From the NCBI GenBank assembly GCA_030390025.1, contig JASTWF010000328.1:62001-126000 (forward strand): a DNA stretch of 64,000 nt. Direction: 5' to 3'. Positions 2,686-54,725 of the stretch are shown one piece after another (the stretch's first letter is position 1; each line of letters opens with the position of its first letter). The notes beneath the pieces are model-generated. The model saw only the letters and a program-made list of their open reading frames with translations, did no database searches and was not told the origin of the DNA. Made by a program: the position numbers and the translations under genes. This stretch comes from Squalus acanthias. Taxonomy: Eukaryota.

Positions 2686-5395
<2,710 letters not shown>

Positions 5396-10293: not shown

Positions 10294-10347
10294 CAGTGTG
10301 AAGACGCTGGTGTCCCATAAACTTTTAAAGCTCTTCGCACAGTCAGA

Positions 10348-21554: not shown

Positions 21555-21966
21555 AATCATCGAGCAGAAACTGATAGCCAAGTTACGCACCCATGAGGAC
21601 GGTCTCAACCGGGATCTTGGTTTCATGTCACGCTACAGGACGTGACTCAACATCGTTGTCTGGTTCACAGATGTGATTTCCAGTTTTTAAAAAAAAGTAA
21701 AAAGCTTAAACTGCAGACTGCAGCATTTGACACGTTGGACCCCCTGTGACCCCACCTCATTGTCTTAGCTGTACTCTGCTGTGTCTTTGATGTAATGCCT
21801 CCCTGACGGATTGTATCTCTGCAGACACATTGTTCTCTGTCTATAGATACTTTGTAACCGATTTGTATTCCCTCACTGTACCTGACGAAGGAGCAGAGCT
21901 CCGAAAGCTCGTAATTTCAAATAAAACTGTTGGACTATAACCTGGTGTTGTGCGACTTCTCATTTT
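21555..21966 (+). mobile_element. Penelope-like element 3' fragment (family A) with hammerhead
   Basis: Encodes IEQKLIAKLRTHEDGLNRDLGFMSRY, resembling a GIY-YIG endonuclease C-terminus; TSD TATTTCCAACAA at 21543-21554 and 21967-21978; empty paralog at ~50775-50790. Confidence 0.85.
21879..21913 (+). ncRNA. Minimal type I hammerhead ribozyme motif
   Basis: tac-CTGACGA-a-ggagc aga gctcc-GAAA-gctc-gta. Confidence 0.75.
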
Positions 21967-24190: not shown

Positions 24191-25144
<954 letters not shown>

Positions 25145-26124: not shown

Positions 26125-27866
26125 AAACAATTGACAAAAAGGGAGAAAATAGAATGAGAGTCAATTAGCAAGAAATATAAAAACAGACTGTAAGAGCTTC
26201 TACAAGTATGTGAAAAGGACGAGAGTAGCAAAAGCAAGTGTTGGTCCATTAGAGGCTGAGACAGGAGAAATTAAATTGGGGAACAAGGAAATGGCAGAGA
26301 CTTTAAATAAATATGTTTTATCTGTCTTCACAGTAGAAGACACAAAAAGTAAACCAAAAATAGTGGGGAACCAAGGGGCTACTGAGAGTGAGGAACTTAA
26401 AGTCATTAATATCAGTAGAGAAAAAGTACTTGAGAAACTAATGGGACTAAAAGCCGACAAATCCCCTGGACCTGACGGCCTACATCCTAGGGTTCTAAAA
26501 GAGAAGGCTGTGGAGATAGTGGATTCATTGGTTGTGATCTTCTAAAATTCCCTAGATTCAGGAATGGTCCCAGCGGATTGGAAGGTAATAAATGTAACCC
26601 CGCTATTCAAGAAAGGAGGGAGAGAGACAACAGGGAACTACAGGCCAGTTAGCCTGACATCAGTTGTTGGGAAAATGCTGGAATCCATTATTAAGGAAGT
26701 GGTATCAGGGCACTTAGAAAATCATAATATGATTAGGCAGAGTCAACATGGTTTTATGAAAGGTAAATTGTGTTTGACAAATTTATTGGAGTTTTTTGAG
26801 AATGGAACTAGCAGGGTAGATAAAGGGGAACCAGTGGATGTGGTATATTTGGATTTCCAAAAGGCATTCGGTAAGGTGCTACATAAGAGGTTCTTAAGCA
26901 AGATAAGGGCACATGGGGTTGGAGGTAATGTGTTGGCATGGATAGAGGATTGGTTAACAGACAGAAAAGAGAGTAGGGATAAATGGGTCATTTTCAGATT
27001 GGCAGGCTGTAACTAGTGGGGTGCCGCAAGGATCAGTGCCTCAGCTATTTACAATCCATATTAATGACTTAGATGAAGGGACTGAGTGCAATGTGTCCAA
27101 GTTTGCTGATGATACAAAGCTAGGTGGGACAGTAAGCTGTGAGGAGGACACAAAGAGCCTGCAAAGGGATATGGACAGGTTAAGTGAATGGGAAAAAAGA
27201 TGGCAGATGGAGTATAATGTGGGGAAATGTGAGGTTATTCACTTTGGTAGGACGAACAGAAAAATAGAATATTTTTTAAATGGTGGTAAACTATTAAATG
27301 TTGGTGTCCAGAGAGATTTAGGTGTCTTCGTACAAGAAACACAGAGAGTTAGCAAGCAGGTACAGCAGCAATTAGGAAGGCAAATGGCATGTTGGCCTTT
27401 ATTGCAAGGGGGTTGGAGTATAAGAGTAAGGAAGTCTTGCTACAATTGTACAGGGCTTTGGTGAGACCACACCTGGAGTACTGTGCACAGTTTTGGTCTC
27501 CTTATTTAAGGAAGGATATAGCTGCCTTCGAGGCGGTGCAACAAAGGTTCACTAGATTGATCCCTGGGATGAGAAGGTTGTCCTATGAGGAGAGGTTGAG
27601 TAGATTGGGCCTATACTCTGGAGTTTAGAAGAATGAGAGGTGATCTCATTGAAACATATAAGATTATGAGGGGGATTGACAGGGTAGATGCTGAGAGGCT
27701 GTTTCTCCTGGCTGGAGAGTCGAGAACTAGGGGGCATAGTCTCAGGACAAGAGGGTCGGCCTTTTAAGACAGAGATCAGGAGAAATGTCTTCACTCAGAG
27801 GGTTGTAAATCTTTGGAATTCTCTGTCCCAAAATGTTGTGGATGCTCAGTGGTTGAGTATATTGAA
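26125..27866 (+). mobile_element. CR1 LINE (duplicate of 18865-20775), left part; resumes at 49829-50005
   Basis: Near-identical to 18865-20609. Confidence 0.9.
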
Positions 27867-27915
27867 ATGAGAAGTCGCACAACACCAGGTTATAGTCCAA
27901 CAGATTTATTTAATT

Positions 27916-27954
27916 TTACAAGCTTTCGGAACAGTTCGCTCCTTCGTCAGGTAA
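27916..27954 (-). ncRNA. Minimal hammerhead ribozyme motif (left arm)
   Basis: Minus strand ttac-CTGACGA-a-ggagc gaact gttcc-GAAA-gctt-gtaa. Confidence 0.75.
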
Positions 27955-28157
27955 GTTAGCAGTGACAGAATCTCCCAGAATTCACAATTTAAACACAGAC
28001 AAAATATATTCAAATCTTTCCTACATCAAAGAGCACAGCCAAGACAATGAGATGTGTCCCAGGGGATCCAACGTGTCAAACCACCTGCTGGCTGCATATC
28101 GAATATATTTTGTCTGTGTTTAAATTGTGAATTCTGGGAGATTCTCTCACTGCTAAC

Positions 28158-28196
28158 TTACCTGACGAAGGAGCGAACTGTTCCGAAAGCTTGTAA
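28158..28196 (+). ncRNA. Minimal hammerhead ribozyme motif (right arm)
   Basis: ttac-CTGACGA-a-ggagc gaact gttcc-GAAA-gctt-gtaa; stem I ttac/gtaa, palindromic AAGCTT at stem III. Confidence 0.75.
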
Positions 28197-28298
28197 AATT
28201 AACTAAATCTGTTGGACTATAACCTGGTGTTGATCTTTTGGTTGGACAAACACAAATTTACTGCAAATCAATTAAAACTTTAAATGAAACTTAACAAA

Positions 28299-31200
28299 TC
28301 AAATCAAAATTTGGAAGTCCGGGGTGACGATGCACTCCAGTCCCCGCGGCGCCCACCGGTCGCGGAAAAACTCAAGCGTGCCGGCGGACACCGCGTGCTC
28401 CATCTCCAGGGCCACCCGGGCGCGAACATGGCCGCGGAAGAGAGGCAGGCAATCGGGCCGAACGACCCCCTCGACCGCCCGCTGCCTGGACCAATTAATG
28501 GCTTTCTTGGCCAGGCCCAGGAGCAGTCCTACGAGGAGGTCCTCCGACCTACCCGCTCCCCTCCGCACCGGGTGACCGTAGATCAGGAGCGTGGGGCTGA
28601 AGTGCAACCAGAAATTGAGGAGCAGCCCCTTCAAATAATGAAAGAGGGGCTGCAACCTCTCACACTCAATATAAATGTGATAGACGGACTCCTCTAGGCC
28701 GCAGAAATGACAAGCAGCCTGGGAGTCCGTAAACCTACTTAAAATCCTATTGCACGGGACTGCTCCGTGCAACACCCTCCAGGCCAAGTCCCCAATAGAA
28801 CAAGGGAAGACTCCCGCGTAGAGAGCCTTCCAATGGGGACCTTCGCCTCCGCCGGACGGCAGGATGGTACGCCAAGGCGTGTCCGGACGGCAGACGAAGA
28901 TGGCAAAGTGGAGAGTGTGCAGGAGCAGCCCGTACAGGAAACGCCTCCGTGCGGATTGAAAGGGCACGGAGGGCATTTCTCCGAGAAGGCTCAAGTGGTG
29001 AGGCGGCGGCTCCCGAGGGAGGATTCGGGGCCGGGCGCCGATAAGGAATTCCGTCCGAACGGGGGTCAGTTCGGACGGGATCGCCCCACGTGCTTGAGCC
29101 TCCTCGACACACCTAGTGGAGACGGGGCCCAGTGCCACTTTTAGCGACTCGATGGCTTTGACCGCGAGCCGGACGTTGACCCAAGACATGCGCCTCGCCA
29201 ACTCCTCCGGCGCCATCCAGCCCGCTCCTCCGCCATCGAGCAGGTCCCCGACTCTGGTCACCTTACCGGGCACAGCCCTGCCCTCCGCCAGCCAGCCGAA
29301 CCCGCGGTCGTGGAGGTGCGGATTCCTGAACAGCGGCTCCCGAAGGACGGCCGCCGCTCCTGACGGGGGAGAACTGCGCTCGGAGGCGACGCTGTTCCAA
29401 ACCCATAGCAGTTCCTGGTAGAAGACAGGCAGCTCCCGCAGGCTGGCACGCGTGCCACCCACTCTCACAAACAGGAGCTGCGTGTCGTAATTGAGGCCGT
29501 GCAGCTGGCGGAAGAAATACGTCGCCAGCGCACGCCACCTAGGAGGATTCTCCACGTACAGGTATCTCTGCAGCGTCTGAAGACGGAAAGTCGCCGCCTG
29601 GGTGCGAAGGCACACCAGCGCCTGACCGCCCTCCCTAAGCGGGAGACTCAAAACCGCGGCAGAGACCCAGTGCTTCCTTTTGTCCCAGAAGAAGTCGACG
29701 AGCTTCTTCTGCATCTTGGCGACAAACGCAGGGGGAGGGATCAAAGTGATCAACCGGTACCACAACATGGCGGCCACCTGCTGGTTTATGACCAGCGCTC
29801 GACCCCTGTAGGACAACACTCGGAGCAACCCCGTCCAGCGTCCTAGGCGAGCGGTGACCTTGGCCTCCAGCTCTTGCCAGTTCGCCGGCCAGGCGTCCTC
29901 GGCCGGGCTGAGGTAGACTCCCAGGTAGAGGAGGTGCGTGGTGCTCCAGGCGAAAGGCCCGAACTCCTCCGGCAGGGAGTCCACCTGCCATGGGCCCACC
30001 AGGAGTCCAGAACATTTCTCCCAGTTGATCTTGGCGGAGGATGCGTCCGAGTAAATCTGCTGGCATTCTCGCATCCTCCGCAAGTCGACGGGATCCGTGA
30101 CCGCGAGGAGCACGTCATCGGCGTAAGCCGAGAGGACCACCTCCACGCCCGGCCCTTGCAGAGCCAGTCCCGTCAACCTCTTCCGCAAGAGGCGCAGGAA
30201 AGGCTCCACGCAAACGGCGTATAACTGACCGGACATGGGGCATCCCTGACGCACCCCCCTCCCGAAGCGAAGGGGCGCCGTCAAAGACCCGTTAACTTTA
30301 ATGAGACACTCCGCGGCGGCGTACAGAAGTCGGATCCGGGCGACGAAATGCGTCCTGAACCCGAATGCGCGCAGAGTCCCGAAAAGATACTCGTGATCCA
30401 CCCTGTCGAACGCCTTCTCCTGATCCAGGGAAAGGAAGGCGACCGACAGACCAGCCCTCTGGGAATGGTGGACCAGGTCCCGGACCAGATGGATGTTATC
30501 GTGGATACTCCGGCCCGGGACCGTGTAGGACTGGTCGGGGTGGATCATGCGGGCCAGCACGGTGCCAAGGCGAGCAGACATAGCCCTGGCGAAAATTTTG
30601 TAGTCCGTGCTGAGGAGGGAGACCGGGCGCCAGTTCTTAAGTAGGCGGAGATCGCCCTTCTTGGGCAGCAGGACGATGACCGCCCTGCGCCAAGAGAGGG
30701 GCATCTCCCCGGTCGCCAGACTTTCCCCCAGGACCCGCGCGTAGTCGTCCCCCAAGACGTCCCAGAACGCCCTGTGGAACTCCACGGTCAGCCCGTCCAG
30801 CCCCGGGGACTTGCCCCTCGAGAGCTGGCGCAGGGCGCCGGTCAGCTCCGCCAGGCTTAGCGGAGCTTCTAAATTCTCGGCGCCCTCCGGGCCGACCTTC
30901 GGCAGGTCCTCCCACAAAACTCTGCGCGCATCCTCGCTGGACGGATCCGAAGAGAACAGAGCCCCGTAATAGGCCCGGGCCTCCGCGCTGATGCCCTCCG
31001 GATCCGAGACCAGAGATCCGTCGTCGGCCAGCAGCCCCAAGAGCTGCTTACGGACCCCCCGTCTTTTTTCCAGCGAGTAGAAGAAGGGGGAGCCGCGGTC
31101 CAGGTCCCGCAGGAACTGGATCCGCGACCTCACGTACGCGCCTCGGGACCCGACCAGCTGCAGGTCCTTCAGCGCGCCCTTCTTCTCTTCGTACACCTTC

Positions 31201-32198
31201 CGCAGGGCCGGGTCCTCGACGACTTGACCGAGACGGGACTCCAGGTCGAGCACTTCTTTCTCCAATCGCCCGACCCGGGCCTCCCGCCTCTTGGTCGACC
31301 CCTTCGCGTACTCCTGACAGAAGACGCGGACGTGAGCCTTGCCCACGTCCCACCATAGCCTCAAGGAGGGGAAGCCTCCCCGCTTCCTTCTCCAGTCGGC
31401 CCAGAACCGGCGAAACGAATCCCGGAACCGCGCGTCCTCCAGCAGCAGGTTGTTAAAATGCCAGTACGCGGACCCCCCCCGTGCGCGCAGCGGAGCGAGC
31501 TCCGCCCACACCAGGTGGTGGTCCGTGCACGGCACCGGCCGCATGGAAGCCGCCGGAACGCAGGAGACGTACGCCCGGGAAATGTAAAGGCGGTCGATTC
31601 TGGACCTTCCTCCTCCAGACCTCACGCTCGTGAAGGCGCTGGAGTCGGGATGGAGATTTCGCCAGACGTCCACCAAGTCGAAGGACCCGACCAGGTCCCG
31701 CAACTTCTCCATCGCCGCCGGGCTTCGCGGGGGACCCGACCGGTCCCGCGCCTCGAGGGTACAATTGAAATCCCCCCCGAGGATGACGCACTCGCCCACG
31801 TCGATGGAGCCCAGAAGAGCGGACACTTCTCCGAAGAAGCGCACTTGCTGCGCACCGGTCCGGGGGGCGTACACGTTCACTAAATGGAGCGGCACGCCTC
31901 CCAGGCGAACAGTGACCTGGAGCAAGCGGCCCGGCACGTGCTCCTTGACCCTCAAGATCTCCGGCTGAAAATGCGGGGCCAGCAAGACAGCCACCCCGCA
32001 GGAATTGTTGGAGAGGTGACTCATGCTGACCCCTCCTTGCCACTCCAGGAGCCACGTGGCCTCGTCTCCCGGAACGGTGTGGGTTTCTTGCAGGAAGCAC
32101 ACCGCATATTTCCCGTCCCGAAGGACCGAGAAGTTATTGAATCTACGGCGCGCCTCCCTGCTGCCATTGATGTTGAGGCTGGCTATGGTTATCTTCAT
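28299..32198 (-). CDS. Tx1 ORF2 (APE endonuclease, RT, C-terminal zinc finger), copy A
   Basis: SLNING, FLQETH, GGDFNC, SRIDR, TDHH; LDQEKAFD, RQGCP, YADD; CHFC..H..C; ATG at MKITIAS. Confidence 0.93.
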   Translation of the reverse strand: MKITIASLNINGSREARRRFNNFSVLRDGKYAVCFLQETHTVPGDEATWLLEWQGGVSMSHLSNNSCGVAVLLAPHFQPEILRVKEHVPGRLLQVTVRLGGVPLHLVNVYAPRTGAQQVRFFGEVSALLGSIDVGECVILGGDFNCTLEARDRSGPPRSPAAMEKLRDLVGSFDLVDVWRNLHPDSSAFTSVRSGGGRSRIDRLYISRAYVSCVPAASMRPVPCTDHHLVWAELAPLRARGGSAYWHFNNLLLEDARFRDSFRRFWADWRRKRGGFPSLRLWWDVGKAHVRVFCQEYAKGSTKRREARVGRLEKEVLDLESRLGQVVEDPALRKVYEEKKGALKDLQLVGSRGAYVRSRIQFLRDLDRGSPFFYSLEKRRGVRKQLLGLLADDGSLVSDPEGISAEARAYYGALFSSDPSSEDARRVLWEDLPKVGPEGAENLEAPLSLAELTGALRQLSRGKSPGLDGLTVEFHRAFWDVLGDDYARVLGESLATGEMPLSWRRAVIVLLPKKGDLRLLKNWRPVSLLSTDYKIFARAMSARLGTVLARMIHPDQSYTVPGRSIHDNIHLVRDLVHHSQRAGLSVAFLSLDQEKAFDRVDHEYLFGTLRAFGFRTHFVARIRLLYAAAECLIKVNGSLTAPLRFGRGVRQGCPMSGQLYAVCVEPFLRLLRKRLTGLALQGPGVEVVLSAYADDVLLAVTDPVDLRRMRECQQIYSDASSAKINWEKCSGLLVGPWQVDSLPEEFGPFAWSTTHLLYLGVYLSPAEDAWPANWQELEAKVTARLGRWTGLLRVLSYRGRALVINQQVAAMLWYRLITLIPPPAFVAKMQKKLVDFFWDKRKHWVSAAVLSLPLREGGQALVCLRTQAATFRLQTLQRYLYVENPPRWRALATYFFRQLHGLNYDTQLLFVRVGGTRASLRELPVFYQELLWVWNSVASERSSPPSGAAAVLREPLFRNPHLHDRGFGWLAEGRAVPGKVTRVGDLLDGGGAGWMAPEELARRMSWVNVRLAVKAIESLKVALGPVSTRCVEEAQARGAIPSELTPVRTEFLIGARPRILPREPPPHHLSLLGEMPSVPFQSARRRFLYGLLLHTLHFAIFVCRPDTPWRTILPSGGGEGPHWKALYAGVFPCSIGDLAWRVLHGAVPCNRILSRFTDSQAACHFCGLEESVYHIYIECERLQPLFHYLKGLLLNFWLHFSPTLLIYGHPVRRGAGRSEDLLVGLLLGLAKKAINWSRQRAVEGVVRPDCLPLFRGHVRARVALEMEHAVSAGTLEFFRDRWAPRGLECIVTPDFQILI

Positions 32199-32223
32199 CT
32201 CAGAAGCATAGTGCAACCTCTAC

Positions 32224-34381
32224 CTAACGGAGGGGAGGGAGGGCGGTCACTGACGACCGCCACTCCCTCAGCAGCCCAGTGTGGAAGCTCTTGAGCCGAC
32301 GCAGCTCGAGCCGGCCAACGTCCTTGTCCGCGCCCATGATTTTAACGGCGGCGCGGATGGACACGACGAGCAGCGCCAGCTCCGACCACTTGTCGAGGGC
32401 CAGCCGGATCTTCTTGTGACGACCCTGGCTCACGGCCATAAAATCCCGGAGTTCCCCTACGGGGATGAGGGGAGAGTCGGTGAAGGGCACGAGGGCGTCC
32501 ATCACCTCGCTGCCGATGGACTCCAAATCGTCCTCGTTGCCCAACACCGAGTCCCCGTCCTCCTCCGGGAGGTCGTCACCGGCGGCCAACCCGTCCGTCA
32601 CACAGGGTGCAGCGAACGGCTCGGCCGCACCGGCCGGCCCCGCCTCCGTCACGATCCCACCCCCAGGATCGGTGGCAGAGGAGTCCACCCTGGGCTCCTT
32701 CAGGGGCGCCGGGCCGGGAGGCGGCGGCGGCGGTTCGGGGCCCCCCCCCGCCTCAGGCGCCGGAGCGACCGGAGAAACCGGGGAGAAAATAATCTCAATT
32801 TCCTCCAGCACGTCCGGCGCCAACATCAGAGACGGAGTCAGGGGGCTTTCTGTCTCCCCGCCACCAACCTCCGACCCAGCGGGCTGGGGATTGTTAAAGT
32901 CCTCCACCAGGTCGAGCAGTCCCTGGGAGATATCTGGATTGTAAAAGGCGGGCTCGGCTTCAGCCTCTTTGGCCTCGCCCGCCCCAGTCCCCAGGACGCC
33001 CGACCCGGCGAGGAGCAACGGTTCCGTAACTACATTTCCCTCCGCGGGTTGTTCCGCGCCCCCCCCCCACAGGCAGGGTCTCTTCCCCATCCCCGGGAGG
33101 CACAGGTCGGACAGACTCGGCTGTCTCACCCTCCCGAGGGACAGACGACCCCTGCCGATCGCGCGCGACGATGACGGTGGTGGGGTGGGGCGCAGCACCC
33201 GCGGCGGGCGACTGCCCCCCTTTTGCGGAGGGACCTTCCTCCTCGCAGTCCTCCTGCTGGGGGCGGAGCTTTCTTTTTAACAAGTTGGGGCCCGGAGAGG
33301 GGGAGGCCTCCATGTCTGCTGGGGCCTCCCTCTCTGCCCCCTTCCGACGACTGGGTTTCTTGGGCCCCTCGGGCCCGAGCCCGGCCGCAGGTCTTGATTT
33401 AGCCGCCTCGGCGGTTGCGGTCACGGTCACGGGCCCGGGCACGAGGACCCCCCCAGTCTCATGCGTCCCGACCAACTCCGCGATATACTCGGGCGTGAGT
33501 TCGGTCAATTCCGATGTTTCCTCCGCGAGGGGATCCGCCCTTAGGTGTTTAGTTTTCCTACGCGCCTTCCTTCCCCCCGGACGCTCTCCCTCCTCCCCGC
33601 CGGAGGCCGTGGTGGTGTTGGCCTCCGATTTCGACCGCGCATCCGTCGCCGTCGACGCGCGGACAGTATCAGGGGGAGGGGGGGCGGCGGCGCCAACCCT
33701 GGCCGCGCCAGGTGTCGTGGCGGCCTTGGAGGCGGGGCAGTTTTTGCGGACGTGCCCCACCTCCTTACAGGCGTAGCACCGCACGCCGTCCGAGGTCCAG
33801 AAGACGCGGTGGGCGGTGCCCCCGTGGAGCACCGTGAACGCGCCGTCCGCGTCCTCCTCCCGCGCCAGCCGGACGAAAAGCTGGCGCCGGAAGGAGAAGA
33901 CGTGCCGAAGGCTGGCTTCCCGGAAGCCGAGCGGGATGGGTGTGATCCCCGACCTCACCTCCCCCAGTTGACGTAGGTGGGGGAGGAGGAGCTCACCCGG
34001 AACAAAGGGCGGGACGTTGGAAACCACAATCCTTTGCGCGGTGGCCTCAAGGGGGTCCACCGGCAGGAAGGTCCCGCCCACGGTGAGCCCCTTCTCGATG
34101 GCCAGGGACACCGCCCGCTCCGACCCCAGGAAGAACACAGCCTTGCCGTACATTTTAGAGGCGGCGACGATGGCTGAAGGGCCGACAACCCCAGCCATGG
34201 CTTTTACACACGCCTCTATTGTCATATTGGGGTGAGTGTAGCTCTTGACCCCATTCTTCCTCGTAAGGAGGGTAAAAGGTGACGGGGTAACAGGAGGACT
34301 CGTGGCTGCGGCCGTGGCCGCGGCTGCCACGCTCGCATACGTCCTCGCTGCCCCCGCCACCGACGAAGATGTACTCGCCAT
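32224..34381 (-). pseudogene. Tx1 ORF1 copy A, +1 frameshift in a homopolymer at ~33059-33068
   Basis: C10 versus C9 in copy B; CYACKEVGHVRKNC knuckle; may be a sequencing error. Confidence 0.75.
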
Positions 34382-35475
34382 AATGGAGGGTTCTTTAAGG
34401 GCTACACTCACCCCAAGTCACAGGCCTGAAGGTGTTAATGGCCTCGGTTTTTTTTTTGTTTTCCCCTGAGCAGAGGGAGCTCTTAAATTGAAGGCACACC
34501 TCTCCCTTTTTATGAATTAATTAGGAGAGGGGCCTTCTGCCCTCTGCTCAATGGGTACTTAATAAAAGTAAATTGAGGTGCCTCTTAGAGAGAGAGGCAG
34601 AGAGAGACAAGAGACAAAGAGAGAGAGAGAGGGGGTAGGAAGGAGGGAAGCCGCAAGGGCAGGGTCGCCACTCAGGATGGTGGGTGGGTGGGTGTTGGCA
34701 GGGGGGGTGCACTCTCCGATGTAATAAAAGTCTTTGGTGGTGGTGGTCTTCTGGTGGGGGGAGAAGATGTCTTCACCTGGGATAGCTGGAGATGCCCAGG
34801 CTCAGTCCTGCACCAGGTCTTAACGATGCCCAATTGGATTAAATTAATTGGGGAACTTCACCTAGGCAGCTCCAGCTGTCCCAGGTCAGGCAATGGGAAA
34901 GGGGTGTTTAATATGGTGTGTGCGGCCTAGCTTTTACAGAAGCCACACACACTCACACACACACCCCTTAGATGTTCCGGCCTTCTTTTCTTCTTTCCTC
35001 CCCCCACCTACAAAACAAAGTCTCTGGGAGAGTGCCCCAGAATCACACCCACCTGTAGCTGTTGTTCTTTCCTTCCTCCCTCCTTCCAAACAGATGATGG
35101 ATGTTGTCGATGTTTTCTCCCCTCTCTCCCTCTCCTTAAATGGAGGCCAATTGAGGAGGCAGTGTGGAAAGGCCTCTCCTTTGATGTTGATGGCCTTGGC
35201 CTTCCCTTCTTTTCACTCTCCTCTCCTGTCCTCTCTCTCCAGGCACCTCAGTTGTGGTTGTTGGTTGTTGGTGGTGGCCTGCTGTCTGGTCTCCTTCTCC
35301 TTCTCCTCTTCCTGCTCACAGAGACCACCACTCTGCTGCTGCTGCTCCTCCGTCAGCAGCTCCGAAAGCTTGTGATTTCAAATAAAGCTGTTCGACTATA
35401 ACCTGGTGTTGCTCTTTTTGGTTGAACCCAAATTTACTGTAAATCAAATTAAAACTTTAAATGAAACTTAATAAA

Positions 35476-38400
35476 TCAAATTAAAATTTGAAAGTCCGGG
35501 GTGACGATGCACTCCAGTCCCCGCGGCGCCCACCGGTCGCGGAAAAACTCAAGCGTGCCGGCGGACACCGCGTGCTCCATCTCCAGGGCCACCCGGGCGC
35601 GAACATGGCCGCGGAAGAGAGGCAGGCAATCGGGCCGAACGACCCCCTCGACCGCCCGCTGCCTGGACCAATTAATGGCTTTCTTGGCCAGGCCCAGGAG
35701 CAGTCCTACGAGGAGGTCCTCCGACCTACCCGCTCCCCTCCGCACCGGGTGACCGTAGATCAGGAGCGTGGGGCTGAAGTGCAACCAGAAATTGAGGAGC
35801 AGCCCCTTCAAATAATGAAAGAGGGGCTGCAACCTCTCACACTCAATATAAATGTGATAGACGGACTCCTCTAGGCCGCAGAAATGACAAGCAGCCTGGG
35901 AGTCCGTAAACCTACTTAAAATCCTATTGCACGGGACTGCTCCGTGCAACACCCTCCAGGCCAAGTCCCCAATAGAACAAGGGAAGACTCCCGCGTAGAG
36001 AGCCTTCCAATGGGGACCTTCGCCTCCGCCGGACGGCAGGATGGTACGCCAAGGCGTGTCCGGACGGCAGACGAAGATGGCAAAGTGGAGAGTGTGCAGG
36101 AGCAGCCCGTACAGGAAACGCCTCCGTGCGGATTGAAAGGGCACGGAGGGCATTTCTCCGAGAAGGCTCAAGTGGTGAGGCGGCGGCTCCCGAGGGAGGA
36201 TTCGGGGCCGGGCGCCGATAAGGAATTCCGTCCGAACGGGGGTCAGTTCGGACGGGATCGCCCCACGTGCTTGAGCCTCCTCGACACACCTAGTGGAGAC
36301 GGGGCCCAGTGCCACTTTTAGCGACTCGATGGCTTTGACCGCGAGCCGGACGTTGACCCAAGACATGCGCCTCGCCAACTCCTCCGGCGCCATCCAGCCC
36401 GCTCCTCCGCCATCGAGCAGGTCCCCGACTCTGGTCACCTTACCGGGCACAGCCCTGCCCTCCGCCAGCCAGCCGAACCCGCGGTCGTGGAGGTGCGGAT
36501 TCCTGAACAGCGGCTCCCGAAGGACGGCCGCCGCTCCTGACGGGGGAGAACTGCGCTCGGAGGCGACGCTGTTCCAAACCCATAGCAGTTCCTGGTAGAA
36601 GACAGGCAGCTCCCGCAGGCTGGCACGCGTGCCACCCACTCTCACAAACAGGAGCTGCGTGTCGTAATTGAGGCCGTGCAGCTGGCGGAAGAAATACGTC
36701 GCCAGCGCACGCCACCTAGGAGGATTCTCCACGTACAGGTATCTCTGCAGCGTCTGAAGACGGAAAGTCGCCGCCTGGGTGCGAAGGCACACCAGCGCCT
36801 GACCGCCCTCCCTAAGCGGGAGACTCAAAACCGCGGCAGAGACCCAGTGCTTCCTTTTGTCCCAGAAGAAGTCGACGAGCTTCTTCTGCATCTTGGCGAC
36901 AAACGCAGGGGGAGGGATCAAAGTGACCAACCGGTACCACAACATGGCGGCCACCAGCTGGTTTATGACCAGCGCTCGACCCCTGTAGGACAACACTCGG
37001 AGCAGTCCTGTCCAGCGTCCTAGGCGAGCGGTGACTTTGGCCTCCAGCTCTTGCCAGTTCGCCGGCCAGGCGTCCTCGGCCGGGCTGAGGTAGACTCCCA
37101 GGTAGAGGAGGTGCGTGGTGCTCCAGGCGAAAGGCCCGAACTCCTCCGGCAGGGAGTCCACCTGCCATGGGCCCACCAGGAGTCCAGAACATTTCTCCCA
37201 GTTGATCTTGGCGGAGGATGCGTCCGAGTAAATCTGCTGGCATTCTCGCATCCTCCGCAAGTCGACGGGATCCGTGACCGCGAGGAGCACATCATCGGCG
37301 TAAGCCGAGAGGACCACCTCCACGCCCGGCCCTTGCAGAGCCAGTCCCGTCAACCTCTTCCGCAAGAGGCGCAGGAAAGGCTCCACGCAAACGGCGTATA
37401 ACTGACCGGACATGGGGCATCCCTGACGCACCCCCCTCCCGAAGCGAAGGGGCGCCGTCAAAGACCCGTTAACTTTAATGAGACACTCCGCGGCGGCGTA
37501 CAGAAGTCGGATCCGGGCGACGAAATGCGTCCCGAACCCGAAAGCGCGCAGAGTCCCGAAAAGATACTCGTGATCCACCCTGTCGAACGCCTTCTCCTGA
37601 TCCAGGGAAAGGAAGGCGACCGACAGACCAGCCCTCTGGGAATGGTGGACCAGGTCCCGGACCAGATGGATGTTATCGTGGATGCTCCGGCCCGGGACCG
37701 TGTAGGACTGGTCGGGGTGGATCATGCGGGCCAGCACGGTGCCAAGGCGAGCAGACATAGCCCTGGCGAAAATTTTGTAGTCCGTGCTGAGGAGGGAGAC
37801 CGGGCGCCAGTTCTTAAGTAGGCGGAGATCGCCCTTCTTGGGCAGCAGGACGATGACCGCCCTGCGCCAAGAGAGGGGCATCTCCCCGGTCGCCAGACTT
37901 TCCCCCAGGACCCGCGCGTAGTCGTCCCCCAAGACGTCCCAGAACGCCCTGTGGAACTCCACGGTCAGCCCGTCCAGCCCCGGGGACTTGCCCCTCGAGA
38001 GCTGGCGCAGGGCGCCGGTCAGCTCCGCCAGGCTTAGCGGAGCTTCTAAATTCTCGGCGCCCTCCGGGCCGACCTTCGGCAGGTCCTCCCACAAAACTCT
38101 GCGCGCATCCTCGCTGGACGGATCCGAAGAGAACAGAGCCCCGTAATAGGCCCGGGCCTCCGCGCTGATGCCCTCCGGATCCGAGACCAGAGATCCGTCG
38201 TCGGCCAGCAGCCCCAAGAGCTGCTTACGGACCCCCCGTCTTTTTTCCAGCGAGTAGAAGAAGGGGGAGCCGCGGTCCAGGTCCCGCAGGAACTGGATCC
38301 GCGACCTCACGTACGCGCCTCGGGACCCGACCAGCTGCAGGTCCTTCAGCGCGCCCTTCTTCTCTTCGTACACCTTCCGCAGGGCCGGGTCCTCGACGAC

Positions 38401-39375
38401 TTGACCGAGACGGGACTCCAGGTCGAGCACTTCTTTCTCCAATCGCCCGACCCGGGCCTCCCGCCTCTTGGTCGACCCCTTCGCGTACTCCTGACAGAAG
38501 ACGCGGACGTGAGCCTTGCCCACATCCCACCATAGCCTCAAGGAGGGGAAGCCTCCCCGCTTCCTTCTCCAGTCGGCCCAGAACCGGCGAAACGAATCCC
38601 GGAACCGCGCGTCCTCCAGCAGCAGGTTGTTAAAATGCCAGTACGCGGACCCCCCCCGTGCGCGCAGCGGAGCGAGCTCCGCCCACACCAGGTGGTGGTC
38701 CGTGCACGGCACCGGCCGCATGGAAGCCGCCGGAACGCAGGAGACGTACGCCCGGGAAATGTAAAGGCGGTCGATTCTGGACCTTCCTCCTCCAGACCTC
38801 ACGCTCGTGAAGGCGCTGGAGTCGGGATGGAGATTTCGCCAGACGTCCACCAAGTCGAAGGACCCGACCAGGTCCCGCAACTTCTCCATCGCCGCCGGGC
38901 TTCGCGGGGGACCCGACCGGTCCCGCGCCTCGAGGGTACAATTGAAATCCCCCCCGAGGATGACGCACTCGCCCACGTCGATGGAGCCCAGAAGAGCGGA
39001 CACTTCTCCGAAGAAGCGCACTTGCTGCGCACCGGTCCGGGGGGCGTACACGTTCACTAAATGGAGCGGCACGCCTCCCAGGCGAACAGTGACCTGGAGC
39101 AAGCGGCCCGGCACGTGCTCCTTGACCCTCAAGATCTCCGGCTGAAAATGCGGGGCCAGCAAGACAGCCACCCCGCAGGAATTGTTGGAGAGGTGACTCA
39201 TGCTGACCCCTCCTTGCCACTCCAGGAGCCACGTGGCCTCGTCTCCCGGAACGGTGTGGGTTTCTTGCAGGAAGCACACCGCATATTTCCCGTCCCGAAG
39301 GACCGAGAAGTTATTGAATCTACGGCGCGCCTCCCTGCTGCCGTTGATGTTGAGGCTGGCTATGGTTATCTTCAT
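35476..39375 (-). CDS. Tx1 ORF2, copy B (intact)
   Basis: Same motifs as copy A. Confidence 0.95.
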   Translation of the reverse strand: MKITIASLNINGSREARRRFNNFSVLRDGKYAVCFLQETHTVPGDEATWLLEWQGGVSMSHLSNNSCGVAVLLAPHFQPEILRVKEHVPGRLLQVTVRLGGVPLHLVNVYAPRTGAQQVRFFGEVSALLGSIDVGECVILGGDFNCTLEARDRSGPPRSPAAMEKLRDLVGSFDLVDVWRNLHPDSSAFTSVRSGGGRSRIDRLYISRAYVSCVPAASMRPVPCTDHHLVWAELAPLRARGGSAYWHFNNLLLEDARFRDSFRRFWADWRRKRGGFPSLRLWWDVGKAHVRVFCQEYAKGSTKRREARVGRLEKEVLDLESRLGQVVEDPALRKVYEEKKGALKDLQLVGSRGAYVRSRIQFLRDLDRGSPFFYSLEKRRGVRKQLLGLLADDGSLVSDPEGISAEARAYYGALFSSDPSSEDARRVLWEDLPKVGPEGAENLEAPLSLAELTGALRQLSRGKSPGLDGLTVEFHRAFWDVLGDDYARVLGESLATGEMPLSWRRAVIVLLPKKGDLRLLKNWRPVSLLSTDYKIFARAMSARLGTVLARMIHPDQSYTVPGRSIHDNIHLVRDLVHHSQRAGLSVAFLSLDQEKAFDRVDHEYLFGTLRAFGFGTHFVARIRLLYAAAECLIKVNGSLTAPLRFGRGVRQGCPMSGQLYAVCVEPFLRLLRKRLTGLALQGPGVEVVLSAYADDVLLAVTDPVDLRRMRECQQIYSDASSAKINWEKCSGLLVGPWQVDSLPEEFGPFAWSTTHLLYLGVYLSPAEDAWPANWQELEAKVTARLGRWTGLLRVLSYRGRALVINQLVAAMLWYRLVTLIPPPAFVAKMQKKLVDFFWDKRKHWVSAAVLSLPLREGGQALVCLRTQAATFRLQTLQRYLYVENPPRWRALATYFFRQLHGLNYDTQLLFVRVGGTRASLRELPVFYQELLWVWNSVASERSSPPSGAAAVLREPLFRNPHLHDRGFGWLAEGRAVPGKVTRVGDLLDGGGAGWMAPEELARRMSWVNVRLAVKAIESLKVALGPVSTRCVEEAQARGAIPSELTPVRTEFLIGARPRILPREPPPHHLSLLGEMPSVPFQSARRRFLYGLLLHTLHFAIFVCRPDTPWRTILPSGGGEGPHWKALYAGVFPCSIGDLAWRVLHGAVPCNRILSRFTDSQAACHFCGLEESVYHIYIECERLQPLFHYLKGLLLNFWLHFSPTLLIYGHPVRRGAGRSEDLLVGLLLGLAKKAINWSRQRAVEGVVRPDCLPLFRGHVRARVALEMEHAVSAGTLEFFRDRWAPRGLECIVTPDFQILI

Positions 39376-39400
39376 CTCAGAAGCATAGTGCAACCTCTAC

Positions 39401-41557
39401 CTAACGGAGGGGAGGGAGGGCGGTCACTGACGACCGCCACTCCCTCAGCAGCCCAGTGTGGAACGTCTTGAGCCGACGCAGCTCGAGCCGGCCAAGGTCC
39501 TTGTCCGCGCCCATGATTTTAACGGCGGCGCGGACGGACACGACGAGCAGCGTCAGCTCCGACCACTTGTCGAGGGCCAGCCGGATCTTCTTGTGACGAC
39601 CCTGGCTCATGGCCATAAAATCCCGGAGTTCCCCTACGGGGATGAGGGGAGAGTCGGTGAAGGGCACGAGGGCGTCCATCGCCTCGCTGCCGATGGACTC
39701 CAAATCGTCCTCGATGCCCCCCACCGAGTCCCTGTCCTCCTCCGGGAGGTCGTCACCGGCGGCCAACCCGTCCGTCACACAGGGTGCAGCGAACGGCTCG
39801 GCCGCACCGGCCGGCCCCGCCTCCGTCACGATCCCACCCCCAGGATCGGTGGCAGAGGAGTCCACCCTGGGCTCCTTCAGGGGCGCCGGGCCGGGAGGCG
39901 GCGGCGGCGGTTCGGGGCCCCCCCCCGCCTCAGGCGCCGGGGCGACCGGAGAAACCGGGGAGAAAATAATCCCAAATTCCTCCAGCACGTCCGGCGCCAA
40001 CAACAGAGACGGAGTCAGGGGGCTTTCCGTCTCCCCGCCACCAACCTCCGACCCAGCGGGCTGGGGATTGCTACACTCCTCCACCAGGTCGAGCAGTCCC
40101 TGGGAGATATCTGGGTTATAAAAGGCGGGCTCGGCTTCAGCCTCTTTGGCCTCGCCCGCCCCAGTCCCCAGGACGCCCGACCCGGCGAGGAGCAACGGTT
40201 CAGGTTCTACATTTCCCTCCGCGGGTTGTTCCGCGCCCCCCCCCACAGGCAGGGTCTCTTCCCCATCCCCGGGAGGCACAGGTCGGACAGACTCGGCTGT
40301 CTCACCCTCCCGAGGGACAGACGACCCCTGCCGATCGCGCGCGACGATGACGGTGGTGGGGTGGGGCGCAGCACCCGCGGCGGGCGACTGCCCCCCTTTT
40401 GCGGAGGGACCTTCCTCCTCGCAGTCCTCCTGCTGGGGGCGGAGCTTTCTTTTTAACAAGTTGGGGCCCGGAGAGGGGGAGGCCTCCATGTCTGCTGGGG
40501 CCTCCCTCTCTGCCCCCTTCCGACGACTGGGTTTCTTGGGCCCCTCGGGCCCGAGCCCGGCCACAGGTCTTGATTCAGCTGCCTCAGCAGTTGCGGTCAC
40601 GGTCGCGGGCCCGGGCACGAGGACCCCCCCAGTCTCATGCGTCCCGACCAACTCCGCCATGTACTCGGGCGTGAGTTCGGTCAATTCCGATGTTTCCTCC
40701 GCGAGGGGATCCGCCCTTAGGTGTTTAGTTTTCCTACGCGCCTTCCTTCCCCCCGGACGCTCTCCCTCCTCCCCGCCGGAGGCCGTGGTGGTGTTGGCCT
40801 CCGATTTCGACCGCGCATCCGTCGCCGTCGACGCGCGGACAGTATCAGGGGGAGGGGGGGCGGCGGCGCCAACCCTGGCCGCGCCAGGTGTCGTGGCGGC
40901 CTTGGAGGCGGGGCAGTTTTTGCGGACGTGCCCCACCTCCTTACAGGCGTAGCACCGCACGCCGTCCGAGGTCCAGAAGACGCGGTGGGCGGTCCCCCCG
41001 TGGAGCACCGTGAACGCGCCGTCCGCGTCCTCCTCCCGCGCCAGCCGGACGAAAAGCTGGCGCCGGAAGGAGAAGACGTGCCGAAGGCTGGCTTCCCGGA
41101 AGCCGAGCGGGATGGGTGTGATCCCCGACCTCACCTCCCCCAGTTGACGTAGGTGGGGGAGGAGGAGCTCACCCGGAACAAAGGGCGGGACGTTGGAAAC
41201 CACAATCCTTTGCGCGGTGGCCTCAAGGGGGTCCACCGGCAGGAAGGTCCCGCCCACGGTGAGCCCCTTCTCGATGGCCAGGGACACCGCCCGCTCCGAC
41301 CCCAGGAAGAACACAGCCTTGCCGTACATTTTAGAGGCGGCGACGATGGCTGAAGGGCCGACAACCCCAGCCATGGCTTTAACGCACGCCTCTATAGTCA
41401 TGTTGGGGTGAGTGTAGCTCTTGACCCCATTCTTCCTCGTAAGGAGGGTAAAAGGTGACGGGGTAACAGGAGGACTCGTGGCTGCGGCCGTGGCCGCGGC
41501 TGCCACGCTCGCATACGTCCTCGCTGCCCCCGCCACCGGCGAAGATGTGGTCGCCAT
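39401..41557 (-). CDS. Tx1 ORF1, copy B (718 aa from first ATG; CCHC knuckle and long low-complexity region)
   Basis: MATTSS start, IVVSNVPPF, CYACKEVGHVRKNC. Confidence 0.9.
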   Translation of the reverse strand: MATTSSPVAGAARTYASVAAAATAAATSPPVTPSPFTLLTRKNGVKSYTHPNMTIEACVKAMAGVVGPSAIVAASKMYGKAVFFLGSERAVSLAIEKGLTVGGTFLPVDPLEATAQRIVVSNVPPFVPGELLLPHLRQLGEVRSGITPIPLGFREASLRHVFSFRRQLFVRLAREEDADGAFTVLHGGTAHRVFWTSDGVRCYACKEVGHVRKNCPASKAATTPGAARVGAAAPPPPDTVRASTATDARSKSEANTTTASGGEEGERPGGRKARRKTKHLRADPLAEETSELTELTPEYMAELVGTHETGGVLVPGPATVTATAEAAESRPVAGLGPEGPKKPSRRKGAEREAPADMEASPSPGPNLLKRKLRPQQEDCEEEGPSAKGGQSPAAGAAPHPTTVIVARDRQGSSVPREGETAESVRPVPPGDGEETLPVGGGAEQPAEGNVEPEPLLLAGSGVLGTGAGEAKEAEAEPAFYNPDISQGLLDLVEECSNPQPAGSEVGGGETESPLTPSLLLAPDVLEEFGIIFSPVSPVAPAPEAGGGPEPPPPPPGPAPLKEPRVDSSATDPGGGIVTEAGPAGAAEPFAAPCVTDGLAAGDDLPEEDRDSVGGIEDDLESIGSEAMDALVPFTDSPLIPVGELRDFMAMSQGRHKKIRLALDKWSELTLLVVSVRAAVKIMGADKDLGRLELRRLKTFHTGLLREWRSSVTALPPLR

Positions 41558-42713
41558 AATGGAGGGTTCTTTAAGGGCTACACTCACCCCAAGTCACAGG
41601 CCTGAAGGTGTTAATGGCCTTGGTTTTTTTTTGTTTTAGTTTTCCCCTGAGCAGAGGGAGCTCTTAAATTGAAGGCACACCTCTCCCTTTAGTTGATTGA
41701 ATTGGGAGAGGGGCCTTCTCCCCTCTGCTCAATGGGTACTTAATTAAAAATAGATGAGGTGCCTCTTAGAGAGAGAGGCAGAGAGAGACAAGAGACAAAG
41801 AGAGAGAGAGAGGGGGTGGAAGGAGGGAAGCCGCACGGGCAGGGTCGCCACTCAGGATGGTGGGTGGGTGGGTGTTGGCAGGGGGGGTGCACTCTCCGAT
41901 GTAATAAAAGTCTTTGGTGGTGGTGGTCTTCTGGTGGGGGGAGAAGATGTCTTCACCTGGGATAGCTGGAGATGCCCAGGCTCAGTCCTGCACCAGGTCT
42001 TAACGATGCCCAATTGGATTAAATTAATTGGGGAACTTCACCTAGGCAGCTCCAGCTGTCCCAGGTCAGGCAATGGGAAAGGGGTGTTTAATATGGTGTG
42101 TGCGGCCTAGCTTTTACAGAAGCCACACACACTCACACACACACCCCTTAGATGTTCCGGCCTTCTTTTCTTCTTTCCTCCCCCCACCTACAAAACAAAG
42201 TCTCTGGGAGAGTGCCCCAGAATCACACCCACCTGTAGCTGTTGTTCTTTCCTTCCTCCCTCCTTCCAAACAGATGATGGATGTTGTCGATGTTTTCTCC
42301 CCTCTCTCCCTCTCCTTAAATGGAGGCCAATTGAGGAGGCAGTGTGGAAAGGCCTCTCCTTTGATGTTGATGGCCTTGGCCTTCCCTTCTTTTCACTCTC
42401 CTCTCCTGTCCTCTCTCTCCAGGCACCTCAGTTGTGGTTGTTGGTTGTTGGTGGTGGCCTGCTGTCTGGTCTCCTTCTCCTTCTCCTCTTCCTGCTCACA
42501 GAGACCACCACTCTGCTGCTGCTGCTCCTCCGTCAGCAGCTCCGAAAGCTTGTGATTTCAAATAAAGCTGTTCGACTATAACCTGGTGTTGATCTTTTTG
42601 GTTTGACAGAACGCAAATTTACTGTAAATCAATTAAAACTTGAAATGAAACTTAATAAATCAAATTAAAATTTGAAAGTCCGGGGTGACGATGCACTCCA
42701 GTCCCCGCGGCGC

Positions 42714-48742: not shown

Positions 48743-49776
48743 AATGGAGGGTTCTTTAAGGGCTACACTCACCCCAAGTCACAGGCCTGAAGGTGTTAAT
48801 GGCCTTGGTTTTTTTTGTTTTAGTTTTCCCCTGAGCAGAGGGAGCTCTTAAATTGAAGGCACACCTCTCCCTTTAGTTGATTGAATTGGGAGAGGGGCCT
48901 TCTCCCCTCTGCTCAATGGGTACTTAATTAAAAATAGATGAGGTGCCTCTTAGAGAGAGAGGCAGAGAGAGACAAGAGACAAAGAGAGAGAGAGAGGGGG
49001 TGGAAGGAGGGAAGCCGCAAGGGCAGGGTCGCCACTCAGGATGGTGGGTGGGTGGGTGTTGGCAGGGGGGTGCACTCTCCGATGTAATACAAGTCTTTGG
49101 TGGTGGTCTTCTGGTGGGGGGAGAAGATGTCTTCACCTGGGATAGCTGGAGATGCCCAGGCTCAGTCCTGCACCAGGTCTTAACGATGCCCAATAATATT
49201 AAGTTAATTGGGGACTTCACCTAGGCAGCTCCAGCTGTCCCAGGTCAGGCAATAGAAAGGGGGTGTTTAATATGGTGTGTGCGGCCTAGCTTTTACAAAA
49301 GCCACACACACACACACACACCCCTTGGATGTTCCGGCCTTCTTCTTTTTCTTCTTTCCTCCCCCCACCTACAAAACAAAGTCTCTGGGAGAGTGCCCCA
49401 GAATCACACCCACCTGTAGCTGCTGTTCTTTCCTTCCTTCCTCCTTCCAAACAGTTGATGGATGTTGTTGTTGTTTTCTCCCCTCTCTCCCTCTCCTAAA
49501 ATGGAGGCCAATTGAGGAGGCAGTGTGGAAAGGCCTCTCCTCTGGTGTTAATGGCCTTGGCCTTCCTTTCCTTCTTTTCTTCTCTTTCTCCTGTCCTCCC
49601 TCTCCAGGCACCTCAGTTGTGGTTGTTGGTTGTTGGTGGTGGTCTGCTGTCTGGTCTCCTTCTCCTTCTCCTCTTCCTGGTCACAGAGACCACCACTCTG
49701 CTGCTTCTGCTCCTTCGTCAGCAGCTCCGAAAGCTTGTGATTTCAAATAAAACTGTTGGACTATAACCTGGTGTTG

Positions 49777-49828
49777 TGCGACTTCTCATTTTTGTCCACC
49801 CAAGTCCAACGCCGGCATCTCCACATCA
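49777..49828 (+). mobile_element. Distal end of the interrupted PLE terminal repeat
   Basis: TGCGACTTCTCATTTTT continues 28232 exactly as at 21951-21967. Confidence 0.88.
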
Positions 49829-50544
49829 TGAGTATATTGAAGGCTGAGATAGTTAGATATTTGGACTCCAGAGGAATCAAGGGATATGGGGATAGGGCAG
49901 GAAAGTGGAGATGAGATAGTAGATCAGCCACGATCCTATTGAATGGCGGAGCAGGCTCGAGGGGCCGAATGGCCCACTCCTGCTCCTGATTCTTATGTTC
50001 TTATGTAAAATAGAAATCAGAGGGTTGGAGTTAAGGGAAGTTTGTTGCCATCTTTCCATCCATTCTGCTGCCTGACCCTTTGACTCCACACGGCCTGACC
50101 GTGGTCATCTTGTAGACCGTACATACTGCAGACACAGTGCACCAGTGGTGGAGGGGGTGGATATTGAGTCCTGTGGCAGGGGCTCTGATGAAGTTGATTT
50201 CTCCGTCCCGTGTATTTTCAGGCATCGCTAGTTGCGTTTTTCACCTCTTTCCACCTTTAAAAAAAAATCTTTTTGCCAGTTTATTAAAGCCATTAAAAAC
50301 CTTCCAGATAAGTCACACAAAAAAATGAGGCCTTGTATGTTTCCATCAAAATGACAGGCCTGAACTCGAGTTAGAAATCACAGTTAGAAAACATTCAGCA
50401 ATTAAACCAGACTGGGCGGGGACTGAGGTGCGAGTTAGTAATGGAAAAGTGGAGGCCAACGTCCTTTGCACCAGGGCTGAGGACCCGGGCACTAAGGTTT
50501 CTGTCTAATTTATTTATTAATTTTGTTTAATGCCCAATATTGCA

Positions 50545-54175: not shown

Positions 54176-54327
54176 TTACAGGGTTTGGATTCTGCTGTTA
54201 CTGCTGCTGATAATAACTAGGCTGGACTTTATTATTCTGGATATATGTTAAATAAATGAGCTTTGTTTTAAACACATTGTTGTAGATTTTTGTCTTTCCC
54301 ACCTGAGTGTTTAGCATCACCTGTCTT

Positions 54328-54655
54328 ATTTATAGACGCTCCCTAACGAGTCTCCATTTCTCCTCCATTTACAGACGCACCCTGACCAGTCACTATTTCT
54401 CCTTCATTTACAGACACTCCCTGACCAGTCACCATTTCTCCTTCATTTACAGACGCTCCCTGACCAGTCCCCATTCCTCCTTTACAGACGCTCCCTGATC
54501 AGTCTCCATTTCTCCTTCATTTACAGACGCTCCCTGACCAGTCACCAGTTCTCCTCCATTTAGAGACGCTCCCTGACCAGTCTCCATTTGTCTTCCATTT
54601 ACAGACGCTCCCTGATCAGTCTCCATTTCTGCTTCATTGACAGACGCTCCCTGAC
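54328..54655. repeat. 39-bp minisatellite, ~8.5 copies
   Basis: Unit ATTTACAGACGCTCCCTGACCAGTCACCATTTCTCCTTC. Confidence 0.92.
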
Positions 54656-54725
54656 TTCCTGTCTGTCCCGGAGTTTGGCGCGGGGCCCCTTTGCTGAACG
54701 AATCGGGAGCAACCGGGATCGGCGG

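Follow-up and report, generated by a model that had tools for sequence, protein, structure and literature searches.

The stretch of Squalus acanthias DNA analysed here (64,000 nt, hereafter the window) contains a segmental duplication of ~7.26 kb, whose unit 2, compared with unit 1, carries an insertion at 27865-49829. This composite insertion is bordered by a 10-bp target-site duplication (TSD), and its empty site is present in the paralogous unit 1 at 20597-20606. It holds a tandem of three ~7.18-kb LINEs (28233-49776), arranged head to tail on the minus strand and inserted antisense to a host Penelope-like element (PLE), in the 3′ region of the latter; with the LINEs subtracted, a short inverted PLE dimer and a 53-nt tail (49777-49829) are left. 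The elements of the locus, together with a separate PLE fragment in unit 1, are:

21555..21966, plus strand: separate 5′-truncated PLE fragment, with the C-terminus of an ORF, a hammerhead-like core (21882-21912) and an unoccupied full target (21935-21956)
27855..27864: left copy of the composite-insertion TSD, 10 bp, GAGTATATTG, identical to the 10-mer at 49830-49839
27865..28232, plus strand: local host, the 3′ part of a PLE as an inverted dimer
28162-28192: hammerhead-like core of the local host, CTGACGA..GGAGC/GTTCC..GAAAGCTT
28233..35411, minus strand: LINE copy A, 7179 nt including a 54-nt 5′ segment (35358-35411)
28299-32198: ORF2 of copy A, intact, 1299 aa
32224-33090 and 32960-34381: ORF1 of copy A, split
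35412..42591, minus strand: LINE copy B, 7180 nt, 5′ segment at 42538-42591
35476-39375: ORF2 of copy B, 1299 aa
39401-41557: ORF1 of copy B, 718 aa
42592..49776, minus strand: LINE copy C, 7185 nt
42714-46559: ORF2 of copy C, 1281 aa
46937-48742: ORF1 of copy C, 601 aa
49777..49829, plus strand: 3′ tail of the host PLE, 53 nt, flanking the array upstream when read in LINE orientation
49830..49839: right copy of the composite-insertion TSD, 10 bp, GAGTATATTG

The LINEs and their host

Among the three LINE copies, both frames are full length only in copy B. Pfam searches identified Exo_endo_phos (1.7e-11), RVT_1 (4.4e-38) and zf-RVT (7.5e-5) in ORF2 and a zf-CCHC knuckle in ORF1, which lies upstream of it. 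This is the layout of the Tx1 clade, with an N-terminal APE-type endonuclease, a reverse transcriptase (RT) and a C-terminal zinc-binding domain in ORF2 and with ORF1 upstream. The Xenopus laevis "Transposon TX1 149 kDa protein" was the fourth match to ORF2 (50% identity, 100% coverage), and the sequence-specific insertion described below is a trait that is common, if not universal, in the clade. The label "Tx1", which is based on ORF2 similarity and not on a tree, appears well founded.

The host is most likely a PLE. Its inverted-dimer arms at 27880-28011 (reverse) and 28101-28232 (forward) are 98.5% identical, and it belongs to a subfamily that we call type 1, with the sequence GTAAAATTAA(A/C)TAAAT. 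The PLE fragment in unit 1 opens with the end of an ORF, ..GLNRDLGFMSRYRT followed by the stop, and is bordered by a ~11-nt duplication, ATTTCCAACAA (21543-21554 and 21966-21977). At another locus in the genome (L050), 395 aa of this ORF precede the same 3′ region. Pfam and PDB sequence searches gave no usable match to the 395-aa ORF end; a YIGET-type motif is visible in it, its nearest Atlas clusters carried HTH_animal, GIY-YIG and RVT_1, and, among 74 longer homologues, RVT_1 was found in 55 and GIY-YIG additionally in 18. The fragment of unit 1 stops ~17 nt beyond the LINE target and many PLE copies have the 53-nt tail, indicating two classes of PLE 3′ ends.

A motif of the form CTGACGA-A-GGAGC-loop-GCTCC-GAAA-GCTT lies ~40-70 nt ahead of the LINE site in the PLE. 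In the available text of PMC4209133, the min-HHR of PLEs has a bulged base and a short, palindromic helix III, and its motifs often come in pairs, 100-700 bp apart on opposite strands; the PLE motif fits this partial description, including the close pairs on opposite strands. Rfam reported no hammerhead or other ribozyme, either in the whole window at the gathering threshold or in 21700-22000 at E ≤ 10. We thus treat the PLE hammerhead as a candidate ribozyme proposed from its motif.

Target site and true target-site duplication

We searched the whole genome from which the window comes (3.7 Gb) for LINE junctions. The 30 best matches to the LINE 3′ end included 26 with a readable junction, the other four lacking an anchor, and all 26 abut ..CCTGGTGTT(G). 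Beyond this sequence lay a PLE in 11 cases, the 5′ end of another full-length LINE copy in 9 and a 5′-truncated copy in 6; the 11 PLE flanks comprised four of type 1, as in the window, six of a second subfamily (type 2) and one short palindrome. The first strand is nicked between 28232 and a PLE base now displaced to 49777. The junctions show a fixed site, and the endonuclease is accordingly predicted to nick GGTGTTG^TGCGAC on the sense strand of the PLE. Exact LINE 3′ junctions number 932 and exact full targets (22-mers) 96,573, so only ~1% of the perfect target sites are occupied.

The features of the target in the window are:

27880..27895, minus strand: perfect 16-mer target, empty, in the left host arm
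28217..28232, plus strand: target core beside the 3′ end of copy A, 16 nt
49761..49776, minus strand: TSD copy bordering the array on its 5′ side, 16 nt

The initial annotation had limited any true TSD to the 18 nt that all junctions of the window have in common, and the duplication indeed falls within this limit. It is 16 nt long, CTATAACCTGGTGTTG, because 5′-truncated copies (L033-36, L058-59) and one near-full-length copy without a leader (L072) adjoin exactly this bare 16-mer. The two copies of a TSD should be identical at birth, which holds for the terminal 16 nt of the 54-nt segment and fails for the 54-mer. It had also been proposed that each insertion rebuilds a full target at its 5′ junction, and an exact 22-mer target is indeed found at 49761-49782; its source is the 16-nt TSD joined to the PLE tail (49777-49782), however, and not the 54-mer as such. 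Perfect empty sites also exist in the window, two in number, at 21935 and 27880. Beyond the 54-mer, all 30 of the best 5′-end loci have the same 52-53 nt of PLE tail before they diverge, in a sample biased by a query that contained the 54-nt segment and the PLE tail.

A leader of target sequence at the LINE 5′ end

The ORFs and Pfam domains confirmed the positions and the minus-strand orientation of the 54-nt segment that had been noticed at the 5′ ends of the three copies. The first 29 nt of the segment occur without mismatch at 35358, 42538 and 49723 and with two mismatches at 21897, against an expectation of 0 in shuffled sequences. Against copy C, the PLE at 21897-21950 shows 2 mismatches in 54 positions and the local host at 28179-28232 shows 8, and the run common to all junctions in the window is 18 nt, exactly as the initial annotation had counted; the 54-mers of A and B are identical and differ from that of C at 2 of 54. 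Between the local host 54-mer and the reverse complement of the other arm (27880-27933) there is only 1 mismatch in 54, which indicates that 28179-28232 is truly local sequence. The 54-nt segment is thus composed of the 16-nt TSD and a 38-nt leader borne by the element:

49707..49721, minus strand: start of the LINE 5′UTR beside the leader, reverse complement of the hammerhead 5′ half, CTGACGAAGGAGCAG
49723..49760, minus strand: leader of copy C, 38 nt, of PLE type 2 sequence, unlike the local host

The segment matches PLE type 2 as found in the hosts at L046 and L055, which bears out the earlier suggestion that the element had assimilated target sequence from another PLE subfamily. What the leader copies is the target beyond the TSD, downstream of the nick. 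We considered 5′ transduction of the flank of a master copy and rejected it, as the 38 nt correspond to the beyond-TSD side and not to the upstream flank, which is the PLE tail (49777-49829).

The complement of the hammerhead half, CTGACGAAGGAGCAG, recurs with one mismatch at 35342-35356 and 42522-42536, giving four matches in the window where 0 are expected. It places the boundary between UTR and leader in the helix II palindrome. Together, these features suggest that the leader may have been founded by a strand switch or by microhomology joining (..CAGC) in a type-2 PLE. The complementary stretch at the UTR start spans the first 15-17 nt next to the leader.

Sequencing data comprised 17 runs, all as Logan contigs and most of them labelled "RNA?" by guess. 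Over 49300-49900, the contigs of four runs (X1, X2, X5 and X17) covered the PLE part ~100- to 1000-fold more deeply than the LINE 5′UTR, and neither the start nor the strand of a transcript could be read from them. Runs X1 and X2 had a contig linking the 54-mer to a LINE 3′ end.

The leader follows the element, not the host

Type-1 hosts read GTAAAATTAAATAAAT where the leader has GTGATTTCAAATAAA(A/G), and the two can therefore be told apart. The initial annotation had proposed to align 5′ junctions and ask whether the 54-mer goes with the element or with the local host subfamily. To do this, we took the nine best previously unsampled type-1-host junctions from a ranked list and compared the host 54-mer with the stretch ~7.1 kb away in which a full-length copy was expected to end. 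A 5′ junction lay within the predicted stretch at all nine loci. Seven copies had a type-2 leader, one had a leader resembling the PLE at 21897 (GCTCGTAATTTC, a third type) and one had none; a type-1 leader was found in 0 of 9. In the eight loci with a leader, host and leader differed at 5-8 of 54 positions. Ten 10-kb loci gave the same answer. L069 is a solo copy with a type-2 segment in a type-1 host; the copy at L070 has all 54 nt although its host keeps just 24 nt of PLE; and L062 and L063 show 2-3 differences from their hosts, including one at position 17, counted from the nick. These comparisons agree with the earlier view that the segment is no duplication of the local site, and show a leader that is inherited with the element and not taken from the local host.

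Genome-wide counts revealed several leader types, the counts being exact pattern matches and the locus samples small and drawn from ranked lists. With a type-2 leader, the exact 28-nt junction between UTR and leader is found in 516 copies, and with a type-1 leader the same junction is found in 11. A second junction, ..CTGCTCACCAC joined to AAGCTTGTG.., has a 30-nt leader and occurs in 111 copies on many contigs, and L069 shows a third. One near-full-length copy, L072, lacks a leader and shows just the 16-mer. The initial statement that each Tx1 carries the 54-nt segment thus holds for the three copies in the window and not for the family as a whole. A 54-mer of the "AAAT" type adjoins 101 LINE 3′ ends. 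We checked nine copies with a type-1 leader: three were in type-1 hosts, five in hosts of other types and one next to another LINE copy. Because three of the nine are in type-1 hosts, some local copying or conversion, or exchange of the leader with local sequence, does occur occasionally. The exact 5′ junctions (516+111+11), set against 932 exact 3′ junctions, point to a high share of full-length copies, although these are exact-match counts with unequal attrition and give an indication only.

Three of the ten long (10-kb) loci, L064, L065 and L067, have a different 5′ region altogether. They resemble the window copy only up to about position 6730, beyond which come a (CA)n run, a different 5′ region common to all three and then an inverted LINE that is ~78% related. 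They represent a second 5′ architecture within the LINE family.

Arrays and the history of copies A, B and C

Of the first 100 listed copies, 46 had a same-strand neighbour 7.05-7.3 kb away, as compared with ~1% expected from random use of the sites. Classified by leader lineage, the neighbour pairs comprised 28 of the 38-nt type, 3 of the 30-nt type and 0 mixed, where 7.7 mixed pairs were expected; the pairs were scored from exact matches on contigs C1-C8 only, and pairs inside one array are not independent. Head-to-tail clustering is thus far above chance, while assembly or polishing errors may be present in long tandem arrays. Internal array junctions read GTGTTG followed directly by (A/C)TCTTTTT, without the TGCGAC half of the target. 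A rare leader variant, GTTCGAC (scored as a 36-mer with 29 genome hits), is common to A and B and to three neighbours in another array. We dismissed the idea that it is private to A and B, given these 29 hits, some of which are in PLE pairs.

Copies A, B and C are 98.0-98.8% identical to one another, that is, they differ at 1.2-2.0%. Copy B is 97.4-99.5% identical to unlinked copies, and the array members are no closer than that. The 3′-terminal 40 nt of the three copies represent three variants, each of which recurs at other loci, indicating that A, B and C are separate insertions and not duplications of a unit. Over the first 762 aligned columns, A equals B, and C differs there at 48 sites; after column 762, B switches to a match with C, and the pattern continues in further blocks. 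This mosaic is not accounted for by one unequal crossover between A and C that would have produced B, as 33 sites after column 762 still group A and B against C, 24 sites are found in B alone, and the 3′ end of B is its own. The growth order A, B, C predicted by the initial annotation is consequently unreadable from copies of such mosaic structure.

Two other kinds of arrangement were seen. Satellite-like arrays of 5′-truncated LINE 3′ ends occur at G000 C8:141708000-141710908 and C18:15297796-15299585 (L033-L036, L058-L059), with periods of ~330 and ~770 bp and a bare 16-mer target between the units. In addition, both arms of inverted PLE dimers are occupied at G000 C2:164562550(-)/164562682(+), C2:164776945(-)/164777077(+) and C4:152277724(-)/152277816(+), with the LINE 3′ junctions 92-132 bp apart, and arrays can thus diverge from one palindrome.

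Proposed mechanism and alternatives

We infer, with somewhat better than even confidence, that a heritable leader derived from the target helps the joining of the 5′ end and that insertions recur at the site so regenerated. That the homology may help 5′ attachment, as the initial annotation proposed, is plausible. In such a cycle, the nick on the PLE sense strand (GGTGTTG^TGCGAC) would prime the cDNA, and a second cut 16 nt away would leave the upstream half with a 16-nt 3′ overhang. If the RNA starts in or upstream of the 16-mer, the finished cDNA would end in the complement of the target; this end could then anneal to the upstream target half, either at the 16-nt overhang or along the homologous 54 nt, and so prime or join the second strand. 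Joining by annealing would yield seamless junctions and mostly full-length copies, and every insertion would leave one perfect target, at its 5′ edge, to be used again. Beside a resident copy, the incoming cDNA would be homologous to its neighbour over its whole length, and an unfinished cDNA might be completed on the 5′ region of that neighbour, which would explain the A-like 5′ end of B, the assortment of leaders and the excess of arrays. The leader itself would go back to an aberrant joining in an ancestor, at the helix II palindrome of the hammerhead in a type-2 PLE.

A further-reaching form of this proposal is conceivable, and we advance it only tentatively: the leader would be a working, built-in homology arm that pairs the cDNA end with the target or with a resident neighbour, the 5′ end would be joined by annealing and copying and not by chance microhomology, unfinished cDNA would be completed on the neighbour, occupied sites would be far better landing places than empty ones, and insertions would seed self-extending arrays. 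Several points weigh against the proposed mechanism, also in its first form. The leader may simply have been carried along, as a neutral passenger, by lineages that were successful; L072 is near full length without one; L064, L065 and L067 have another 5′ region; three of the nine type-1-leader copies do sit in type-1 hosts; and C lacks the 5′ end of B, so that completion on a neighbour would not be general.

Other explanations bear on the leader, on the arrays or on both. That the 54-nt segment is an ordinary long TSD, made afresh from the local PLE at each insertion, would fit its position, where it flanks each copy in direct orientation as a TSD would, and the three type-1-leader copies found in type-1 hosts. 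It is nevertheless highly improbable in view of the 8 mismatches to a local host whose own arms differ at 1 of 54, the lack of a type-1 leader in all nine type-1 hosts, the L070 host in which most of the 54 nt are missing, and the 16-nt TSD of truncated copies. The arrays, for their part, could each be the product of one event. A cDNA ending in the same 16-mer as the nicked target would allow the RT, on reaching the 5′ end of one RNA, to jump to the 3′ end of the next and build a concatemer, with no need for a preference for occupied sites. Arrays are ~50-fold commoner than random use of the 96,573 sites would give, the internal junctions pass from leader and 16-mer directly into the next 3′ end, neighbours have a common leader lineage (31 of 31 pairs), and end-to-end template jumping by LINE RTs is cited in the available text of PMC4494074. 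However, the truncated or leaderless members (L033-36, L058-59, L072) are flanked by a bare 16-mer that an RNA leader could not supply, and A, B and C, given their 1.2-2.0% divergence and different 3′ ends, do not come from one RNA. We consider this origin of the arrays quite unlikely.

It is also conceivable, if unlikely, that aberrant ancestral insertions, one or a few in number, left the leader behind as a neutral relic and that unequal exchange and gene conversion between tandem copies produced the arrays and the shared 5′ ends, with no part played by re-insertion or homology-assisted joining. The mosaic blocks in A, B and C, the satellite-like arrays of truncated copies of equal length (for example, that with the ~330-bp period on C8) and the assortment of leader lineages within arrays are all in line with such a history. 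Against it are the three different 3′-terminal variants of A, B and C, each present at other loci, and the identity among the three copies, which is not above that between B and unlinked copies; moreover, two or more distinct UTR-leader junctions have spread to >100 copies apiece.

Relation to known systems

Attachment of the 5′ end, with cleavage and synthesis of the second strand, is the least understood step of target-primed reverse transcription of LINEs. The elements described here offer a natural experiment on this step. Hundreds of young copies of one site-specific LINE, some with one of several heritable leaders, others leaderless or truncated, exist alongside ~96,000 identical targets that are empty. 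How leader homology affects the precision of junctions, the full-length rate and the growth of arrays should be readable from genomes and testable by a retrotransposition assay.

LINEs of the Tx1 clade that reside in other transposons are described in the available texts of PMC4494074, PMC1950540 and PMC1919474: Tx1L in Tx1D, Tx1-Mar in Mariner, and others in LTR elements and Harbingers. The PLE, a retroelement, would join this list of targets. Tx1L of Xenopus laevis, the archetype of the clade, resembles the LINEs of the window in its APE-type endonuclease, RT and C-terminal zinc domain, with an ORF2 that is 50% identical, and, as far as the accessible portions of PMC1950540 and PMC1919474 describe it, also inserts at one site of another transposon. 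Tx1L targets a DNA transposon, whereas the LINE here targets a Penelope-like retroelement. No description of a target-derived leader of Tx1L was found in the literature searched, which was without the original Tx1 papers.

Close parallels are found in the part of Kojima 2015 (PMC4494074) that is available, which deals with Tx1-Mar and SINEU of crocodilians. These combine Tx1-clade machinery with a transposon target, a 16-bp TSD and tandem insertions that sandwich the TSD, and the 16 nt found here equal the TSD length of the Tx1-mobilised SINEU-3. According to the same partial text, tandem insertions around a TSD were already known, as were 5′ heads or extensions from present or former targets; the 42-nt 5′ extension of SINEU-2B resembles the Mariner target, and some families have 5′ heads derived from a target or former target. 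There, in so far as that text covers it, the extension is flank carried along from a master copy, whereas the leader here copies the downstream, beyond-TSD side and so gives a 54-nt pseudo-TSD. Compared with Tx1-Mar and SINEU as presented there, the leader here belongs to full-length autonomous copies that number in the hundreds, and arrays, built of 7-kb units, are the usual arrangement. In literature searched without subscription papers or Repbase reports, we found neither a Tx1 element that targets a PLE nor a leader that copies the target beyond the TSD.

R2 offers a parallel to the mechanism proposed here. In the available text of Eickbush et al. 2013 (PMC3774820), a ribozyme cuts upstream in the 28S rRNA, so that the RNA 5′ end keeps upstream 28S sequence, and this 5′ target sequence is postulated to anneal the first cDNA strand and to prime the second strand uniformly. 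R2 differs in having another type of endonuclease, in being co-transcribed with rRNA and in carrying upstream target, and no duplication results. A ribozyme on the LINE strand was not found by Rfam, at the thresholds and over the intervals given above. A LINE for which 7-kb tandem arrays are a normal mode of existence also matters for the assembly and annotation of such genomes.

Other features of the window

The window also contains a cluster of C2H2 zinc-finger genes with 28-aa fingers (16829-17884, 10348-11235 and 53138-54175), part of which lies inside the ~7.26-kb segmental duplication. Families of 84-bp repeats at 4438-5375, 10276-11215, 16847-17818, 24209-25096, 53156-54127 and 56455-57089 reflect the zinc-finger periodicity. 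A different LINE, with APE and RT and a 925-aa ORF, lies at 6282-9059 on the minus strand and is also represented at 26200-27860, and RT-bearing fragments related to it at ~75-88% identity are found within the duplicated units. A tandem repeat of ~39 bp, in at least 8 copies, occupies 54290-54710.
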